From contig CAYFJW010000001.1 in NCBI GenBank assembly GCA_964343875.1, positions 81,345-145,344 on the forward strand: DNA of 64,000 nt, written 5' to 3'. This DNA is from Candidatus Woesearchaeota archaeon. Its GTDB lineage: Archaea; Nanobdellota; Nanobdellia; SCGC-AAA011-G17; UBA489. Each line of letters starts with the position of its first letter. Position 1 is the first letter of the stretch. Made by a program: the position numbers and the translations under genes. Positions 3,795 to 63,075 of the stretch are shown in pieces. A model generated the notes under the pieces. It was not told where the DNA came from. It ran no database searches and saw only the letters and a list, made by a program, of their open reading frames with translations.

Positions 3795-4244
3795 ATGAAC
3801 TTATCAAATAAGAAAAGAATTGCATCAAATGTTATGAAGTGTGGTGCAAACAAAGTAAAGTTCGACATTACTAGCCTGCAATCCATAAAAGAAGCAATCA
3901 CAAAGTCAGATATTCGTGCTTTAGTAAAAGACAAAGTAATAAAGAAAAAACCGGACACTGGCGTTTCACGTTCAAGAGCAAGACAAATACTAAAACAAAA
4001 AAGGAAAGGAAGAAGGACCGGACCAGGAAGAAAGAGCGGAACTCACAAAGCAAGATTGCCACAAAAGAAAGAATGGATGAACAAAATAAGAGCAATCAGA
4101 GACCTACTAAAAACATTAAGACAAAAAGAAGTAATCGACGCAAGGGTTTACAGGCTACTCTATAGAAAGGCAAAAGGTGGATACTTCAGAAGCAGAAGAC
4201 ACATCAAATTATACATCGAGGAGCACAATCTAGCTAAAAAATGA
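3795..4244 (+). CDS. rpl19e: 50S ribosomal protein eL19
   Basis: MNLSNKKRIASNVMKCGANKVKFD... is typical of eL19. Confidence 0.88.
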   Translation: MNLSNKKRIASNVMKCGANKVKFDITSLQSIKEAITKSDIRALVKDKVIKKKPDTGVSRSRARQILKQKRKGRRTGPGRKSGTHKARLPQKKEWMNKIRAIRDLLKTLRQKEVIDARVYRLLYRKAKGGYFRSRRHIKLYIEEHNLAKK

Positions 4245-26754: not shown

Positions 26755-26802
26755 GCCTGTTCACAATACGGTGAACTATAAGAACTTAACTATAGTGAAA
26801 GA

Positions 26803-26876
26803 TGGACCGGACGGGATTTGAACCCGCCGCATTACGGCTGCCAGCCGTACATTCTACCAGACTGAATTACCGGCCC
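26803..26876 (-). tRNA. tRNA-Ala (anticodon GGC)
   Basis: GGGCCGG acceptor with G3:U70, anticodon loop CTGGCAG, T-arm GGTTCAAATCC, discriminator A. Its 5' end overlaps the last codons of the upstream LAGLIDADG ORF. Confidence 0.8.
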
Positions 26877-27631
26877 AGTTTTCTTACCTTGTAGGGTCTA
26901 ACTAGGCTTAAAAACTTGTTGACTTCCCTTTCCCTTATTCTCAAAACAAAGAGGTCTTTCCATTCAGGATTTTTTCTTTTTTTACACCAAACTATCGAGG
27001 AAATGCCCAGCTCTTCTAAAATGACTTTCATCTGATAGACTAATTCTTTTGAGGTAGTATAATAAAATGCCCTTAATCTATTGTTTGAGGTGCTCAAGCA
27101 ACCATCTGTATCAAAAAACCCCCTTAAAAAACCAATCTTAAACATTCTATTAAGTGATACTCCTCTAAGTTGGCATGTATTATGTTTATTTCTACAATCA
27201 TACTTAAGATAATTATTGAAAAAATAAAATAACTCTTTATTAATTGCCCTAATCCTATACTTCACCTGGCCTTTTCTGTTTGTTTCCTTCCAGATTCTCC
27301 ACGACCTTCCAAAATAATTCTCGAATAATTTTTTCACGTAAATTACATAATTTTCCACATTCCCAAAATGTATAGTCGTGAGGTATTGTCCATTGGGTCG
27401 ATAATGATATTGACTTCCATCTCCTGCAAAAATGCCCACTATCTCCCCCTCAATCTCGGAGAAACTTATTTTATGTGTTGGTTTTTTGTATTTTTTACCG
27501 TTAACTTTTCGATAATAATAGTAGATTGTAGACTTTGCAAGTCCCGTTTTGGCCACTATCTTGCTTATTGAGAGATTGTTTTTTAAATCAAGAATCAAGC
27601 CTACTCTGATGGATGAGTCTAATCTTTTCAT
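26867..27631 (-). CDS. Free-standing double-motif LAGLIDADG homing-endonuclease-like protein with an N-terminal HTH
   Basis: Two LAGLIDADG motifs (IVGIFAGDGS and GFLRGFFDTDGC). N-terminal HTH LSISKIVAKTGLAKSTIYYYY. Not inside an intron or intein. Confidence 0.75.
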   Translation of the reverse strand: MKRLDSSIRVGLILDLKNNLSISKIVAKTGLAKSTIYYYYRKVNGKKYKKPTHKISFSEIEGEIVGIFAGDGSQYHYRPNGQYLTTIHFGNVENYVIYVKKLFENYFGRSWRIWKETNRKGQVKYRIRAINKELFYFFNNYLKYDCRNKHNTCQLRGVSLNRMFKIGFLRGFFDTDGCLSTSNNRLRAFYYTTSKELVYQMKVILEELGISSIVWCKKRKNPEWKDLFVLRIREREVNKFLSLVRPYKVRKLGR

Positions 27632-27689
27632 AAAAAATTAATATTCTATGGGTTAAAAAAGAAATACATCCAATGCAGTAAGTGAGAAA

Positions 27690-29225
27690 CTATAACTTTC
27701 CAAAACTAAGTTTACCACTAATAAGGCTTTTTATTTTAGTATTTAGCTCGTCTATAGCAACTCTTTTCTGTTTCTCTGAATCTCTATCCCTCAATGTAAC
27801 AGTATTATCTTTCAACGTCTGATGATCAACAGTAACACAATATGCAGTCCCAGATTCAGCAGCACGCAAATACCTTTTACCAATACTCCCCGACTGATCA
27901 TATTCAACTATAAATTCATCCTCTAACAACTTCTTAATTTCTTTAGACTTCTCAGGCATCCCCTCTTTCTTCATCAAAGGGAATATGGCAACATCAACCG
28001 GAGCCAACTGATAAGGCAACCTAAACATGGTCTTTCCCTCTTCCTTACCAACCTTAGTATAAAATATATCCAACAAAGCAAACACAGGCCTATCTATGCC
28101 AAATGCTATCTCCAAAACATGGGGAGTAATATCTTTATTATTTGCATCTTTTGCGGTCAAGTTCTGTTTTGAAAACTTAGAGTGCTGTAACAAATCATAA
28201 TCAGTTCTATCATGTATTCCACAAACTTCGGTCCATCCAAAACTATTCAAATTAATCTCAATATCCCATGCATCATCTGCATAGAATGCCTTTTCATCAT
28301 GATGGTGTTGTCTTATCCTAATTCTATCCTCAGGCACACCCAGATTAACAAACTGCTTATATGCCAACCAAACACACCACGCATAAGCTTTGGACTTAAA
28401 GAATTTCTTTTTAATACAGTCTACAACACTAACCATGGAATGTTTCTTGTCGTCTTTCTGACTCTTATAATCCCATATGGGCAACCTATCTTTCTTAACT
28501 TCATCAAACTTATCCCAATTATCTTTTTCACTTGGATCAATGAACAATTGCCCTTCGGCCTGCGTAAACTCTCTACTTCTCAACAAACCCTGCCTTGGGC
28601 TTATCTCGTCCCTAAATGCCTTCCCAATTTGAAAAACGCCTAACGGCAACCTTCTCCTAAAGAACTCATAATATCTCTTAAATGGAATATATGTAACAGT
28701 CGCAGTCTCAGGTCTTAATGAAGATTCAATACCACCTGCAACAGTCTTCATCATCAAACTTTGACTTTTGATCTTTTTCTTCAATTCTCCCTTGCAAGAG
28801 GGGCATCTTATCTTATTCCCACTAATAAAGTCTAACAACTCTGGATCAGAAAAAGCATCGGCACAAACATCATGACTTTCCTCGATTAACTTATCAGCCC
28901 TAAAAACAGATTTACACTTACTACACTCTATAGTCTTATCATTAAAAGTATCTAAATGACCTGAAGCCTTCCAAACAACATCAGGTAAAACGATCGGACA
29001 TTCAACTTCCCAGAAACCATTGCTCTGAAAAGTTCTTTTTACAATCTTCTCAACTTTCTCCTTCAACAACTTACCAAGCGGCCCATAAGAATAGAATCCG
29101 GCCACGCCCCCATAAATCTCTGGAAAAGGACCCCAAACAAAGCCCTTGCTCTGCATAAATGAAGTCAGATCCATTAAGAACTTCTCTCTCTTTTTGACAT
29201 CTACCTTAACTGGTTTGCTAGGCAT
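27690..29225 (-). CDS. glyS: Glycyl-tRNA synthetase (archaeal/eukaryotic class-II type)
   Basis: GFVWGPFPEIYGGVAGFYSYGPLGKLLK N-terminal signature. Class-II motifs and a C-terminal anticodon-binding domain (SIGKRYLRAAESGTAYCVTVDHQTLKDNTVTLRDRD). Confidence 0.8.
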   Translation of the reverse strand: MPSKPVKVDVKKREKFLMDLTSFMQSKGFVWGPFPEIYGGVAGFYSYGPLGKLLKEKVEKIVKRTFQSNGFWEVECPIVLPDVVWKASGHLDTFNDKTIECSKCKSVFRADKLIEESHDVCADAFSDPELLDFISGNKIRCPSCKGELKKKIKSQSLMMKTVAGGIESSLRPETATVTYIPFKRYYEFFRRRLPLGVFQIGKAFRDEISPRQGLLRSREFTQAEGQLFIDPSEKDNWDKFDEVKKDRLPIWDYKSQKDDKKHSMVSVVDCIKKKFFKSKAYAWCVWLAYKQFVNLGVPEDRIRIRQHHHDEKAFYADDAWDIEINLNSFGWTEVCGIHDRTDYDLLQHSKFSKQNLTAKDANNKDITPHVLEIAFGIDRPVFALLDIFYTKVGKEEGKTMFRLPYQLAPVDVAIFPLMKKEGMPEKSKEIKKLLEDEFIVEYDQSGSIGKRYLRAAESGTAYCVTVDHQTLKDNTVTLRDRDSEKQKRVAIDELNTKIKSLISGKLSFGKL

Positions 29226-59588: not shown

Positions 59589-61373
59589 ATGAAAATAAAC
59601 AAATTTATTGCAATGGCACTATTTATGCTAATAGCAATAAGCTTGACACCTTTCGTTGTTTCTGCTGCAGGTGAACTGTTAGTTGACAATGTTTATTCAG
59701 CAAGCAATCCAACTTTTGGTGACTCAAATCAGGAGGCATCAAATCCTGAGCACGACGATGAAGAAGATGAGATAATCAATGTTACCAGTAGTATTTCTTT
59801 AACAAACAATCAAACAACTGGCGACCTAACAATCTCAGACATAACATTTACAGATGGTAAATTCGGCTTAACACAAACAGATTTTGAACTATTGAGCTCA
59901 GGAGATGTTATTGCGCCTGGTACATCTGCAGGAATAGACATTCTTGCCAATATTCCAGAAAGCCTAGATGGTATTAATTCTGACTTCGAAGAAGTGGCAC
60001 TTTACGTTGGAATAGTTACTATTAAAACAAATGAAGGCCCAGAAGCCGAATTTGATGTTTACATGCAAAGAGAAAACAAATTAGTAATTGATGATTTCGA
60101 TGCATTAATCAATAACAAAGACACAGAAAGCAACATCGGCGATGGAGATGACATCCAAGACCTTAAACCAGGTGATTTAGTTGAGCTTACTATCGTTGTA
60201 GAGAGCAACTATGCTAACAAAGCAAACATTGACATCGAAGACGTTGAAATCGACGTAACATGTGATGATGACGAAGATCTAAACTTTGATGATGACAATG
60301 TAGATGTTGGTAATATTGGTACTAAAGATAGTTCTGAAGAGAACATCAACTTCGACGTAGAAGACGACGCTGTACAGAACACAATAAACTGTGATCTAAC
60401 AACCAGCGGTGTTGATGAGAACGGAGCTACTCACGGTGAAATAATCCGAAGCTTTGGTATTGAAATCAAGAGAGAAAGTCACGATATTGTTATCAAGGAT
60501 GTAAGAGTAAGTCCTTCACCTGTATCATGTGAAGATGACTCAATTCAAGTATCCGTTGATATGATGAACCTAGGTAAGAGGGACGAGGACGAAGTAGGAG
60601 TTCAAATACAAAGCATTGCTTTGGGAATCAATGAGAAGATTTCAAATCTTGTTCTTGATGAGGACGACTCTTCAACTGAAACCTTTATTGCTTCAATAGA
60701 ACAGAACCTAGCTGATGACAAGTATGCAATACTAGTCTCAACTTTCTATGACAACAACAAGCAGACAGACAGTCAAGTTGTACAAATTGACAACCTATGT
60801 ACTGAAGCTGCACCAGAAGAAGATGACGAAGACGAGTTCACAGGGACTTTCACAAGCATGCTAGGACTAACTGAAACTGAAATTTCAGCACCAATGGATA
60901 AGTTGGTTAGTGTTAAGGTTGAGTTAACAAATAGCGAGAACAGCCCGGTAGATTACATGGTATCCTTAGAAGATCTAGGAGACTTTGCAACATCTACAAC
61001 AAGTAAGACTGTTCACCTAAATCCTGGTCAGACTTCCACTGTCTTCCTAAACTTGAAGACAACTGAGAATGCTGAAGAAGGAGCTGCTTACACAGCAAAT
61101 GTTGTTTTGAAAGATGCGAACACAGGTTCAATCCTAGAGACTGAAACATTTACTGTTAACGTAGAAGGCGCACCCGAAGGAACTGGATTTACATTCGGTA
61201 ATTTCGGTGGAGAGGATTCAAAGGTTTTCCTATTGGTCTTGAACATTGTATTAATCATAATTGCAATATTCTTGATTAAGCTAATCTTTAGCTCAGGAAA
61301 AAAGAAATCCAAGCCTAAGAAAGTAGCTGACTTCGAACCAAGAGGTTCAGTCATTATCAAAAAGAAGAAGTAA
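59589..61373 (+). CDS. Acidic secreted surface protein with Ig/CARDB-like repeats and a C-terminal TM anchor (paralog 2)
   Basis: Signal peptide plus SHDIVIKDVRVSPSPVSCEDDSIQVSVDMMNLGKRDEDEV, paralogous to KHDIIIEDTTRLLPSTAFCGETITAVVDVTNIGEKDEDI in the 57907 gene. TM and a Lys-rich tail. Confidence 0.5.
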   Translation: MKINKFIAMALFMLIAISLTPFVVSAAGELLVDNVYSASNPTFGDSNQEASNPEHDDEEDEIINVTSSISLTNNQTTGDLTISDITFTDGKFGLTQTDFELLSSGDVIAPGTSAGIDILANIPESLDGINSDFEEVALYVGIVTIKTNEGPEAEFDVYMQRENKLVIDDFDALINNKDTESNIGDGDDIQDLKPGDLVELTIVVESNYANKANIDIEDVEIDVTCDDDEDLNFDDDNVDVGNIGTKDSSEENINFDVEDDAVQNTINCDLTTSGVDENGATHGEIIRSFGIEIKRESHDIVIKDVRVSPSPVSCEDDSIQVSVDMMNLGKRDEDEVGVQIQSIALGINEKISNLVLDEDDSSTETFIASIEQNLADDKYAILVSTFYDNNKQTDSQVVQIDNLCTEAAPEEDDEDEFTGTFTSMLGLTETEISAPMDKLVSVKVELTNSENSPVDYMVSLEDLGDFATSTTSKTVHLNPGQTSTVFLNLKTTENAEEGAAYTANVVLKDANTGSILETETFTVNVEGAPEGTGFTFGNFGGEDSKVFLLVLNIVLIIIAIFLIKLIFSSGKKKSKPKKVADFEPRGSVIIKKKK

Positions 61374-61430: not shown

Positions 61431-61504
61431 AGGCACTGGCAGGATTCGAACCTGCGAAATAACCGCTCTGCAGGCGGTCCCCTTAACCACTTGGGCACAG
61501 TGCC
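61431..61504 (-). tRNA. tRNA-Cys (anticodon GCA)
   Basis: GGCACTG/CAGTGCC acceptor, anticodon stem ACCGC/GCGGT with loop CTGCAGA, T-arm GGTTCGAATCC, discriminator U73 (Cys identity element). Confidence 0.8.
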
Positions 61505-61506
61505 AG

Positions 61507-61604
61507 CGGACCCGATAGGATTTGAACCTACGACCTTCTGCTCACTTCTGAGTCCGAAGACTTAATAGAAGGCAGACGCTCTATCCAAACTGAGCTACGG
61601 GCCC
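61507..61604 (-). tRNA. tRNA-Arg (anticodon TCT) with a ~23-nt canonical-position intron
   Basis: GGGCCCG acceptor (G3:U70), D-arm GCTCAGTTTGGATAGAGC, anticodon stem TCTGC...GCAGA. The mature loop is CTTCTAA after removal of TTAAGTCTTCGGACTCAGAAGTG. The intron pairs with the anticodon in a BHB-like arrangement. The gene lies 2 nt from tRNA-Cys. Confidence 0.65.
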
Positions 61605-61634
61605 ATACACTTTAAACCCCCCAATTTTCTTTAT

Positions 61635-61642
61635 AAAATTAT
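61635..61642 (-). promoter_or_regulatory. TTTATAAA TATA-box about 30 nt upstream of the tandem tRNA-Arg/tRNA-Cys genes
   Basis: Archaeal TATA consensus at the expected distance from the tRNA 5' end at 61604. Confidence 0.4.
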
Positions 61643-61739
61643 CTACAAGCCATTTTTTAGAAGACCAAAGAACCCACGAGTTATTTGCTTTATCATAATA
61701 AGGCCTATTGAATTCCAATCCAACACCATAAAAAAGTTC

Positions 61740-62297
61740 CTAAAGACCAATTAAAAACTTAAATGATTTTTGTCTTAACTGAACAGCCTTCCTTCCGCGG
61801 TGTTTGTAGATATTTCCATCACTATCAAAGACGCCCTTCAAGAAAGCAATTTTTACAGATCTCCCTGCCCTAGATATCTCTGCAGGTACAACAATTTTTA
61901 CATATTTCTTCCCAATAGGGATTTGATACTTAAAATGGAGGAGTAAAGATAATGGCTTAGAGTAGGTAACTAGCGAGTAACATCCAGACCCATCATAGAT
62001 CTTTGCATCTAAATCAAACAAGCCCCTTACTAGTGCTCTACATTTCTTAGCGTCCTCCAAAGAACAAAAGGCAATTCTAACTGAGTAGATCAACCTACTT
62101 TCTTTTTTCCTAGCGACAATGCACCCATCTCCAAGTATTAGTCCAATAAAGTAGCCAACCTTTACAGGATCTAGAGCATCTAAAGAAACACTATTTCCCC
62201 CATTCACACAAATTTTCACTAAATTTAGTCCATCAAAAGAGAATGTTAAGTTCTTATACGACTTTAATTTCTCAAGAATGTTCTTTTCAACAATCAT
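61740..62297 (-). CDS. Free-standing double-motif LAGLIDADG homing-endonuclease-like protein
   Basis: Two LAGLIDADG motifs (YFIGLILGDGC and FLKGVFDSDGN). 185 aa. About 135 nt upstream of the tRNA pair, same strand. Confidence 0.75.
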   Translation of the reverse strand: MIVEKNILEKLKSYKNLTFSFDGLNLVKICVNGGNSVSLDALDPVKVGYFIGLILGDGCIVARKKESRLIYSVRIAFCSLEDAKKCRALVRGLFDLDAKIYDGSGCYSLVTYSKPLSLLLHFKYQIPIGKKYVKIVVPAEISRAGRSVKIAFLKGVFDSDGNIYKHRGRKAVQLRQKSFKFLIGL

Positions 62298-62355
62298 GAA
62301 CTTCTTTTTAGAGCCATTAATAAAAATAGTCTGCTCGTGGGTGGTAAATGCCGTT

Positions 62356-63075
62356 TTAATCAGAAACCTTTCGAATCTTAATCTTCTTCTTAAGAATTAA
62401 TACCAGCCCCAAAATAACCAACAAACCAATATAATAAAGAGCAACACCTCTGTCCTCTTCAACTTCCACTGGTTCCTCTACAATCTCCAACTCAACAATC
62501 CCTTCTTCAACAATTTCCTCAACAACAGGCCTTTCAGCTATCGCATAATATTGGACCCAATGCAAATCCGAAACAAAGTAATAATTTTTATCATCCTCAT
62601 CTATTGGCAAAATAGATTCTTCAACCATCCATTCTTCATCAAGATACATCAAAACTACATCCTCGACATTGATATCATTCTCTTCCAACCAAGCTTTCTT
62701 AACAACAAACTTTATTTCGGAGAATCTGACTTGACTACGGTTAATCTTAGAAACAACTTCGAAGTAAGTATGCACATTAGAAGCATTATAAGAAGTAACA
62801 TTTTCAGCCAAATCTCCAACACGCCCAATCAAAGGCATCCCGGTATAGACAGTTTCACTTAATTCCAACTTAATATAAGAAACGGGTTCACCAAAGAACG
62901 GTCTCTTCATAGTTACATTTGCCTGTATTCTTGCAAGACTTCCACCAGAAATTGTTGTTCCACCACTAGTACTGCTTCCCGAACCAGAAGAAGATCCAGA
63001 ATTAGACAAAGCTGAAACAGGAAATAAAATAAGTCCAACCATAAGAAACAACATGACTAACTGCCTAACTCTCAT
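62356..63075 (-). CDS. Secreted membrane-anchored protein (Ser/Gly-rich linker, beta-rich domain, acidic stalk, C-terminal TM)
   Basis: Signal peptide MRVRQLVMLFLMVGLILFPVSA, SGSSSGSGSSTSGG linker, EEIVEEGIVELEIVEEPVEVEE stalk, and TM plus KKKIKIRK tail. Confidence 0.45.
   Translation of the reverse strand: MRVRQLVMLFLMVGLILFPVSALSNSGSSSGSGSSTSGGTTISGGSLARIQANVTMKRPFFGEPVSYIKLELSETVYTGMPLIGRVGDLAENVTSYNASNVHTYFEVVSKINRSQVRFSEIKFVVKKAWLEENDINVEDVVLMYLDEEWMVEESILPIDEDDKNYYFVSDLHWVQYYAIAERPVVEEIVEEGIVELEIVEEPVEVEEDRGVALYYIGLLVILGLVLILKKKIKIRKVSD

Follow-up and report, generated by a model that had tools for sequence, protein, structure and literature searches.

Why should a gene for a LAGLIDADG homing endonuclease stand alone in an archaeal genome and run directly into a tRNA gene? 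The usual view is that homing endonucleases survive chiefly inside self-splicing introns or inteins, which leave the host gene functional. The open reading frame (ORF) in question here, ORF1, encodes 254 amino acids (aa) and lies in a 64,000-nucleotide (nt) stretch of contig CAYFJW010000001.1 from a Candidatus Woesearchaeota archaeon (hereafter, the window). An earlier note on this DNA had described it as a free-standing gene that ends about 10 nt inside a same-strand tRNA-Ala(GGC) gene. On the evidence set out below, we consider it probable that ORF1 is a stand-alone homing endonuclease specialised on tRNA-gene boundaries, and that it belongs to a DPANN-wide family in which each clade is associated with one tRNA species.

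The assignment to the LAGLIDADG class had been made from two motifs, GIFAGDGS and GFFDTDGC. Both are present, and ORF1 matched the Pfam family LAGLIDADG_3 (PF14528) over two stretches with E=1.7e-18 (67.1 bits against a curated cut-off of 22.5). In a HMMER alignment with I-DmoI, D71 of the first motif paired with D21 and D176 of the second with E117, which answers the question of whether the catalytic acids are intact; across 26 ORF1 homologues at 32-64% identity, G70-D71-G72 and D174-T175-D176-G177 were invariant. An AlphaFold model built on these 26 homologues (predicted local distance difference test score, pLDDT, 91.3) consists of a three-helix bundle, a linker and two alpha-beta-beta-alpha-beta-beta-alpha halves that form the pseudo-dimeric fold. 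When this model was compared with the PDB using Foldseek, the top 33 matches were all I-DmoI (E=1.7e-10, target-normalised template-modelling score 0.72-0.76, probability 1.00), followed by inteins, I-SceI, I-Tsp061I, WhiA and a maturase. ORF1 is thus a LAGLIDADG enzyme with intact catalytic acids, for which cleavage activity is predicted. The N-terminal helix-turn-helix (HTH) domain that had been read from the sequence drew weak Pfam matches (TetR_N, E=0.005; AlpA; IclR) and corresponds to the confidently modelled three-helix bundle; homologues carry precomputed HTH_7 or CENP-B-type matches, the domain is conserved across the family, and it presumably adds DNA binding. NCBIfam gave no family above cut-off for ORF1, and its sub-threshold matches to intein-containing proteins were confined to the endonuclease part. 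ORF1 is not embedded as an intein would be, since it has its own start and does not lie within a Hint/intein domain. No GIY-YIG domain was matched in ORF1.

The junction with the tRNA is intimate. ORF1 lacks a stop codon of its own and ends within tRNA-Ala, where its TAA (26867-26869) coincides with positions U8-A9-A10, so that the two genes overlap by 10 nt on the same strand, as had been claimed. On the minus strand the junction reads ...AGA AAA CTG GGC CGG TAA TTC AG..., in which the G of CTG is nucleotide 1 of the tRNA. ARAGORN placed the bounds of tRNA-Ala at 26801-26877. The span originally assigned to the gene, 26803-27631, is right at its upper end, which is the start of ORF1, whereas its lower end, 26803, belongs to the tRNA, whose 3' end it marks, and not to the ORF. 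Folding of the junction gave just the tRNA cloverleaf and an ordinary hairpin upstream of it. At the other end of the gene, the TATA-like sequence TTTTTTAA stands 22-29 nt before the ATG, and the identical TTTTTTAA occupies the equivalent position before the endonuclease gene of the related locus L001; this suggests that TTTTTTAA is ORF1's own promoter and that it would give rise to a leaderless mRNA.

Comparison with relatives indicates that ORF1 is part of an insertion. The genome is AT-rich and archaeal, and its nearest named relatives are Woesearchaeota and Nanoarchaeota metagenome-assembled genomes. In the window, ORF1 follows the gene for a glycyl-tRNA synthetase (GlyRS), which we used as the anchor for locating the equivalent site in other genomes; all GlyRS identities given here are to that of the window. 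Downstream of tRNA-Ala lie a small basic ORF, a HIT-family gene and tRNA-Met, and the shared gene order is diphthamide synthase, GlyRS, the optional homing-endonuclease gene (HEG) with tRNA-Ala, the small basic ORF, HIT and tRNA-Met. Relative to two clean empty sites, the window contains 813 extra base pairs (bp), placed exactly between the GlyRS stop codon and position 1 of tRNA-Ala. Carriers are L133 (GlyRS 85%, HEG 64% identical, with a major facilitator superfamily (MFS) gene as the upstream neighbour), L001 (81% and 59%) and the P0006 locus (75% and 52%). The HEG is absent from L136 (GlyRS 95%), where tRNA-Ala lies behind a DUF4352 gene on the reverse strand and a 94-nt spacer that has a TATA box of its own; from L137 (80%), in which the GlyRS TGA is followed directly by G1 of tRNA-Ala; from L091/L092 (75%), in which the GlyRS TAG shares its G with G1 (1-nt overlap); and from L090 (76%), which has a 221-nt spacer. 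L089 (81%) has neither HEG nor tRNA-Ala. Carriers and non-carriers are intermingled on the GlyRS tree (L133 is sister to the non-carrier L089, and L001 to the non-carrier L137), so that several gains or losses are required. Judged from these loci, the gene is distributed as a selfish insertion would be, and a core gene would not: ORF1 is present in some close relatives and absent from others, so that it does not behave as the conserved core gene that would have spoken against an endonuclease element.

We looked for traces of past occupancy in the non-carriers L089-L091 with tblastn (E<=10) and found no endonuclease-gene remnant. A reading of 'N R F L N *' in the L090 spacer was rejected as too short to count. 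The idea that carriers and non-carriers could be told apart by a resistant or susceptible tRNA sequence type was also rejected, as no consistent difference was seen and both D-arm types occur with the gene. As a separate observation, the tRNA-Ala(GGC) of L136 (5804-5876) is 79% identical to that of the window despite the 95% identity of its GlyRS, and the tRNA-Ala of L133 is 100% identical. The history of the tRNA-Ala locus may therefore differ from that of GlyRS, through recombination or replacement at the site, although these comparisons are suggestive only.

A second LAGLIDADG gene in the window, ORF2, shows what may become of such an element. The earlier note had assigned it (61740-62297) the same arrangement as ORF1, which holds for its ancestral state only, as ORF2 now has a premature stop codon and is a distant paralogue. 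Its annotated part matched LAGLIDADG_3 with E=2e-9, but it has no significant full-length similarity to ORF1 and is 23-31% identical to other family members. The premature in-frame TAG (61740-61742) falls at a conserved position, and past it the frame runs for 52 codons to 61581, ending 24 nt inside a tRNA-Arg(UCU) gene. About 65 N-terminal residues of the intact homologues are missing from ORF2. Those homologues (~287 aa, 45-56% identity) read into tRNA-Arg(UCU) or stop 4 nt before it, and a hidden Markov model (HMM) built from them matched both halves of ORF2 (61740-62396, 5.9e-72; 61581-61739, 2.1e-25). We considered and rejected recoding of TAG as an explanation for the stop, given that GlyRS itself ends in TAG and that TAA, TAG and TGA end 24, 11 and 7 of 42 long ORFs, respectively. 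ORF2 is, by its sequence, a decaying element, as the homing life cycle predicts. The tRNA-Arg(UCU) was missed by ARAGORN in its default mode. It is followed after 2 nt by a tRNA-Cys(GCA), a gap that implies a dicistronic tRNA transcript.

The association of ORF1 with a tRNA extends to its family. We found about 110 full-length ORF1 homologues (~250 aa) in DPANN metagenome-assembled genomes, and a HMMER pass over 1.84 billion cluster representatives returned 588 clusters at E<=1e-3, 152 at <=1e-10 and 21 at <=1e-30; most of these share the HTH-plus-nuclease architecture of ORF1. From 232 relatives we took 80 related loci in species-representative genomes, mostly of DPANN archaea with a few bacteria of the candidate phyla radiation (CPR), and called tRNAs with ARAGORN with intron detection. 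The endonuclease ORF ended no more than 30 nt from a tRNA in 54 of the 80 loci, compared with 18 of 373 control ORFs, which were the other ORFs of >=200 aa within the same loci (Fisher p=2e-34); in 42 of the 80 it ended inside a tRNA call. The tight junction between ORF and tRNA is therefore not due to chance. Rfam confirmed the sampled tRNAs, including those on the opposite strand that meet the 3' end of the ORF by their own 3' end. In almost all close relatives of ORF1, tRNA-Ala starts 10-23 nt before the ORF stop codon; the anticodon is mostly GGC, with a few cases of CGC at 25-100 nt. More distant paralogues abut tRNA-Gly(CCC), Asp(GUC), Arg, Gln, Trp, Pro and Leu, and the CPR bacterial members abut tRNA-Ser and tRNA-Tyr. 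In a neighbour-joining tree of the endonucleases, clades grouped by tRNA partner (Ala, Gly, Asp, Arg, Gln, Ser).

The tRNAs also contribute to the proteins. The C-termini of homologues (...LGR, ...KGPVVQW, ...GAGNSAR, ...GPLV) are translated tRNA 5' ends in different frames, and their stop codons come from U8-A9-R10, from Y13-A14-R15 or from a D-loop UAG, giving overlap classes of -10, -15, -21 and -23. Because the junction with the tRNA is flush, the stop codon is a borrowed one. Decay is again seen in L034, whose endonuclease gene contains seven internal stops. Seen together, one precise site that occurs with and without the element and the degenerate copies ORF2 and L034 bear the signature of mobility in sequence, from which we infer homing itself. 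The suggestion that a mobile element uses tRNA genes as landing sites fits the exact 813-bp presence or absence, the association with tRNAs across the family and the correspondence between clades and tRNAs; ORF1 is indeed free-standing and lies outside the tRNA. We also weighed a viral vector and rejected it. Viral LAGLIDADG relatives are distant (23-32% identity in all but one, a short fragment match) and lack the HTH part, and across 39 viral LAGLIDADG loci (237 kb) there is a single tRNA, which is not adjacent to the endonuclease gene.

Two further observations concern the range of this habit. In L005, L006, L011, L012, L013, L014 and L019, an endonuclease gene of the Ala clade lies between two tRNA-Ala genes (CGC and GGC), which could reflect spread between isoacceptor genes or local duplication. 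In L076, L077 and L080, from Uhrbacteria, Blackburnbacteria and Saccharibacteria metagenome-assembled genomes, distant LAGLIDADG ORFs end 3-33 nt from, or inside, tRNA-Ser(CGA) or tRNA-Tyr. Because these CPR relatives also end at tRNAs, docking on tRNA genes may cross the divide between archaea and bacteria among organisms with ultra-small genomes.

The insertion parts the tRNA from its former upstream sequence. The last codons of ORF1 contain a TATA-like box, TTTTTAAG, which reads AAG TTT TTA AGC as codons. At linked loci one of the TATA-like sequences TTTATAA, TTTTTAA or CTTATAG occurs inside the ORF, in frame, 32-42 nt before the tRNA, where it forms part of the codons for [K/R]-F-[L/I]-[N/K/D] in the last LAGLIDADG helix. 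A strict TATA match lay at -42 to -32 in 21 of 36 linked loci, against approximately 1.4 expected from the motif density in ORF bodies (0.0036 per nt) over an 11-nt window. At this site the Ile codon was ATA in 14 of 15 cases (199/564 elsewhere in these ORFs; p=6e-6), the Phe codon TTT in 25 of 28 (318/476; p=0.012) and the Leu codon TTA in 10 of 17 (209/613; p=0.04), a bias that persisted in GC-richer loci such as L006 and L041. Because the box lies in the ORF and its codons are biased towards those that form a TATA sequence, the element seems to replace a promoter that it has displaced, and we infer that it supplies the promoter of tRNA-Ala. The decayed ORF2 is similar: a TATA box, TTTATAAA, lies in its frame, and the same codons, AAT TTT ATA AAG, likewise precede tRNA-Arg(UCU) in the intact homologue L093.

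Two observations on tRNA promoters in these genomes stand beside this. Among unlinked tRNAs (L001-L093 and the window), a TATA-like motif starts at a sharply fixed -33 to -31 in 39 of 81, which implies that transcription probably starts no more than a few nt from tRNA position 1. Such a start resembles the leaderless tRNA transcription reported for Nanoarchaeum equitans. In the non-carriers, the GlyRS stop codon overlaps tRNA-Ala by 1 nt (L091:5501-5540) or abuts it (L137:1840-1875), and therefore the tRNA promoter must lie in the GlyRS coding sequence (CTT ATA AAA in L091). Promoters embedded in upstream genes thus seem to be normal in these compact genomes. The idea that this GlyRS-embedded TATA (CTTATAAA in L091) had decayed in the window was weakened when the clean empty site L137 proved to have the CTTATTAGT of the window.

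These data can be combined in the following mechanism. In genomes without the element, the enzyme would cut the empty junction between the upstream flank and the 5' end of the tRNA, its HTH perhaps anchored on tRNA-gene sequence. Repair of the double-strand break from a carrier allele would copy the element in, and the insertion would split the recognition site and so render the carrier allele immune. Insertion would also move the original promoter of the tRNA 0.8 kb away, and a replacement would be provided by the last-helix codons F-[L/I]-[N/K], which spell TTTTTAA or TTTATAA about 32-42 nt before the tRNA. The essential tRNA would stay expressed and the insertion would be nearly neutral, which is the role that splicing plays for intron- and intein-encoded endonucleases. 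The stop codon would come from conserved tRNA nucleotides, which are U8-A9-R10 in the window and, in relatives, Y13-A14-R15 or the D-loop UAG. ORF1's own TATA box, about 25 nt before the ATG, would drive a leaderless mRNA extending into the tRNA. We extend this more tentatively, and with somewhat less than even confidence, to a guild of LAGLIDADG endonucleases in DPANN and some CPR hosts that home to the outer boundaries of tRNA genes in isotype-specific clades and are rendered harmless by an in-ORF replacement promoter and a borrowed tRNA stop codon. On this wider reading, cutting at tRNA borders could be one cause of the unusual rearrangements of tRNA genes in these lineages.

Several observations weigh against this model. 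F-L/I is also a normal structural motif of the last LAGLIDADG helix, and for this reason part of the TATA signal reflects protein constraint; the codon-bias test was made on related, non-independent sequences; and the TATA boxes of linked tRNAs, at -34 to -42, lie a few nt further upstream than those of unlinked ones (-31 to -33). Some family members converge on the 3' end of their tRNA, where promoter donation cannot apply. All eight of eight strain-level contigs of this population carry ORF1, and an empty allele of this exact species was sought in Joint Genome Institute (JGI) metagenomes and none was found, the sole exact match to tRNA-Ala there being again a carrier. The HEG diverges in step with GlyRS (64, 59 and 52% against 85, 81 and 75%), which fits long vertical inheritance as well as it fits repeated homing. 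The carrier L001 and the non-carrier L091 share the tRNA 5' sequence GGGCCGATAGTTCAGT, and therefore immunity of the carrier must depend on an unconserved upstream half-site, a reliance that is awkward for an element that spreads between genomic contexts. With upstream flanks that differ between lineages, target recognition is the weakest link.

Some of these same facts speak for a different reading, that ORF1 is a domesticated, vertically inherited LAGLIDADG/HTH host DNA-binding factor, for example a regulator or protector of the tRNA gene next to it, by analogy with the domesticated LAGLIDADG protein WhiA, and is retained for a function in the cell instead of for its own spread. Both the HTH and the nuclease core are conserved at full length across DPANN phyla, HEG identity tracks that of GlyRS, no strain-level polymorphism was seen and WhiA is among the structural neighbours in Foldseek. 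The order GlyRS-HEG-tRNA-Ala is kept even in L003, where GlyRS is just 40% identical and the HEG 46% identical. We nevertheless regard domestication as unlikely. Close relatives lack ORF1, including the one with 95% identical GlyRS, and they interleave with carriers on the host tree; the catalytic Asp residues are invariant, unlike in WhiA; one copy is decaying in the same window and others elsewhere; many paralogous clades sit at different tRNAs, with multiple copies per genome; and ORF1 evolves approximately 2.4 times faster than GlyRS. The label 'domesticated', which the earlier note had offered alongside 'mobile', is thus not favoured, given the patchy occurrence among close relatives and the decay of the second copy.

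A third reading, which overlaps with homing to tRNA boundaries, draws on SegB of phage T4/T6, a free-standing GIY-YIG endonuclease of the phage tRNA gene cluster that cuts in tRNA genes, has homologues widely co-localised with such genes and drives their amplification (PMC13096335, which cites Brok-Volchanskaya 2008, PMC2330249). By analogy, ORF1 could be a helper: by cutting within or close to tRNA genes it would favour recombination, preferential inheritance or a change in copy number of the linked tRNA gene, for example under tRNA-targeting toxins, and the HEG-tRNA pair would then be what is selected. We judge this reading improbable. In its favour, HEG and tRNA-Ala are missing together in L089, a second tRNA-Ala flanks the HEG in L005, L006 and L011-L014, and tRNA-Ala alleles are discordant with the GlyRS tree, as in L136. 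However, no tandem amplification was seen in the window or the related loci, the catalytic family is another one and the genome is cellular, not viral. The tRNA is not cargo either, since it is still present at the clean empty sites.

The proposal that ORF1 is the remnant of an endonuclease once encoded in a tRNA intron or a bulge-helix-bulge (BHB) intron is contradicted by the locus. It would account for the closest solved structures, I-DmoI and I-Tsp061I, being those of archaeal intron-encoded enzymes, and many linked tRNAs in relatives do have short introns. However, these introns are just 12-30 nt long and lie in the anticodon loop, whereas tRNA-Ala in the window is intact and intron-free with ORF1 inserted wholly 5' of position 1. 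No second copy of the tRNA 5' segment was found upstream of ORF1, Rfam gave no intron match and the empty sites place the insertion point outside the tRNA, so that we give this origin very little credence. A split-tRNA element was rejected as well, given the missing second copy, the lack of an intron family in Rfam and the plain fold of the junction. Chance abutment in a very compact genome is the least credible of all, even though tight packing is normal here and GlyRS itself abuts or overlaps tRNA-Ala in non-carriers, as it is rejected statistically by the 54/80 against 18/373 comparison, and the association is clade-specific by tRNA and absent from viral loci.

Homing to the tRNA border, our preferred reading, sets ORF1 apart from the systems that it most resembles. 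Like I-DmoI, I-PorI, I-Tsp061I and I-ApeI, it has the single-chain two-motif fold, equivalent catalytic acids and an archaeal host. Enzymes of the I-DmoI type, however, are encoded within BHB-spliced rRNA introns, whereas ORF1 is free-standing, borders a tRNA gene on its outer 5' side, carries about 45 aa of additional HTH domain at its N terminus and is approximately 18% identical to them; neutrality is achieved by splicing in their case and, as we propose, by promoter replacement in the case of ORF1. The best functional analogue is SegB, whose gene also stands free directly beside tRNA genes, although SegB is a phage GIY-YIG enzyme without tRNA-isotype preference, and the ORF1 family is LAGLIDADG, belongs to cellular DPANN/CPR genomes and has isotype-specific clades. 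To our knowledge, neither an embedded tRNA promoter nor a shared stop codon has been reported for SegB. LAGLIDADG genes are known from rRNA insertions of CPR bacteria (PMC11270868) and, in rare cases, from group I introns of bacterial tRNAs (PMC13011429). The rRNA-gene cases share with the ORF1 family ultra-small-genome hosts and highly conserved RNA-gene targets (PMC11270868, PMC13011429), but they lie in introns or insertions that are removed from the RNA, whereas the ORF1 family lies outside the tRNA and leaves it uninterrupted. WhiA, a domesticated transcription factor of Gram-positive bacteria, has a LAGLIDADG scaffold and an HTH, and a few ORF1 homologues have precomputed PF14527 matches; WhiA, however, has lost the catalytic acids, has its HTH at the C terminus and is a conserved core gene, whereas in ORF1 the acids are invariant, the HTH is N-terminal and occurrence is patchy. 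Full-text searches of open-access papers turned up no account of LAGLIDADG genes that flank tRNA genes in DPANN archaea. The enzyme class and its lifestyle are known; the tRNA-border niche in cellular DPANN/CPR genomes, the isotype-specific clades and the way of staying harmless are apparently new.

Two regulatory features came to light in the relatives. Many LAGLIDADG genes in several clades have a conserved structured RNA of about 93 nt (AAAAAGAGAACACGCAAAACUGCC...GCAGUUUCGCUUAAAAUUCUCUUUUU) between a strong promoter and the start codon, with 27 predicted pairs, 8 of which show compensatory changes, followed by a hairpin that sequesters a GGAGG ribosome-binding site. A covariance model found 11 copies, all upstream of an endonuclease gene and on its strand, and Rfam gave no match even at E<=1. 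This RNA is a candidate for a new cis-regulatory leader of endonuclease genes. The covariance-model search did not find it in the window, and a leader-like similarity upstream of ORF2 was rejected as not significant. Separately, a box, CCACTGGACA, lies 12-14 nt upstream of TATA boxes in these DPANN genomes, before many genes of which the endonuclease genes are only a part, and looks like a putative lineage-specific promoter element or factor-binding site; a degenerate version occurs in the window. The tRNA-Cys/tRNA-Arg pair has just upstream of it, on the opposite strand, a 594-aa ORF whose product is very acidic and rich in Asp/Glu, with an N-terminal signal-like hydrophobic segment and, at its C terminus, a hydrophobic segment followed by a lysine-rich tail; it looks like a surface protein. 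Coordinates are collected in Table 1.

Table 1. Positions of the features discussed, in the window and, where a locus handle is given, in related loci
Feature	Position	Strand	Details
ORF1, free-standing single-chain LAGLIDADG homing-endonuclease gene	26867..27631	minus	ATG start; from the ORF listing
N-terminal three-helix HTH-like domain of ORF1	27500..27616	minus	residues 6-44; AlphaFold helices 6-17, 22-29, 33-44; pLDDT ~90
LAGLIDADG motif 1 of ORF1	27413..27436	minus	residues 66-73; catalytic Asp71
LAGLIDADG motif 2 of ORF1	27098..27121	minus	residues 171-178; catalytic Asp176
TATA-like TTTTTAAG, putative tRNA-Ala promoter	26907..26914	minus	ORF1 codons F240-L241-S242; 31-38 nt upstream of tRNA-Ala G1
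tRNA-Ala(GGC)	26803..26876	minus	complete, intron-free, G3:U70 pair; Rfam 59.5 bits
Inserted element	26877..27689	minus	813 bp; spacer with promoter, and ORF to first base of tRNA; absent from syntenic empty sites
Spacer, GlyRS stop to ORF1 ATG	27632..27689	minus	58 nt; left part of inserted element; from sequence
TATA-like TTTTTTAA, putative ORF1 promoter	27653-27660	minus	from sequence
Class II GlyRS	27690..29225		upstream of ORF1; ends in TAG
ORF2, decayed LAGLIDADG paralogue from the clade linked to tRNA-Arg(UCU)	61581..62297	minus	annotated part 61740-62297, 185 aa
TATA box TTTATAAA in ORF2 frame	61630..61637	minus	codons N-F-I-K; starts 33 nt before tRNA-Arg G1
tRNA-Arg(UCU), abutted by ORF2	61507..61604	minus	23-nt intron; Rfam 58.8 bits; ARAGORN intron mode Arg tct i(40,23)
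tRNA-Cys(GCA)	61431..61504	minus	2 nt downstream of tRNA-Arg; not itself abutted by an endonuclease gene; ARAGORN, Rfam
594-aa ORF	59589-61373	plus
Degenerate CCACTGGACA box	62306-62333	minus
Leader RNA copies	L009:3860-3952, L015:3034-3125, L016:1380-1472 and 3815-3907, L033:3794-3888, L039:3824-3932, L040:3859-3953, L052:1892-1986, L058:2355-2448, L061:3805-3924, L069:3850-3941
Box CCACTGGACA, examples	L010:2179, L011:3939, L012:3942, L020:2265, L040:3810, L050:3944, L060:3900

If the extended model is correct, homing endonucleases would have, in the edges of tRNA genes, a third neutral niche in addition to introns and inteins. Docking on the edge of an essential tRNA, with the promoter restored by dual-purpose codons, suggests another route by which such genes persist. 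For annotation, ORFs of this kind are routinely called with tails of tRNA sequence, and adjoining intron-containing tRNAs are missed; the model would explain the 'hypothetical protein' that recurs beside tRNAs in hundreds of DPANN genomes. The family would also constitute a natural set of LAGLIDADG enzymes with tRNA-gene specificities, and it would be a source of recombination at tRNA loci in lineages with odd tRNA gene structures.

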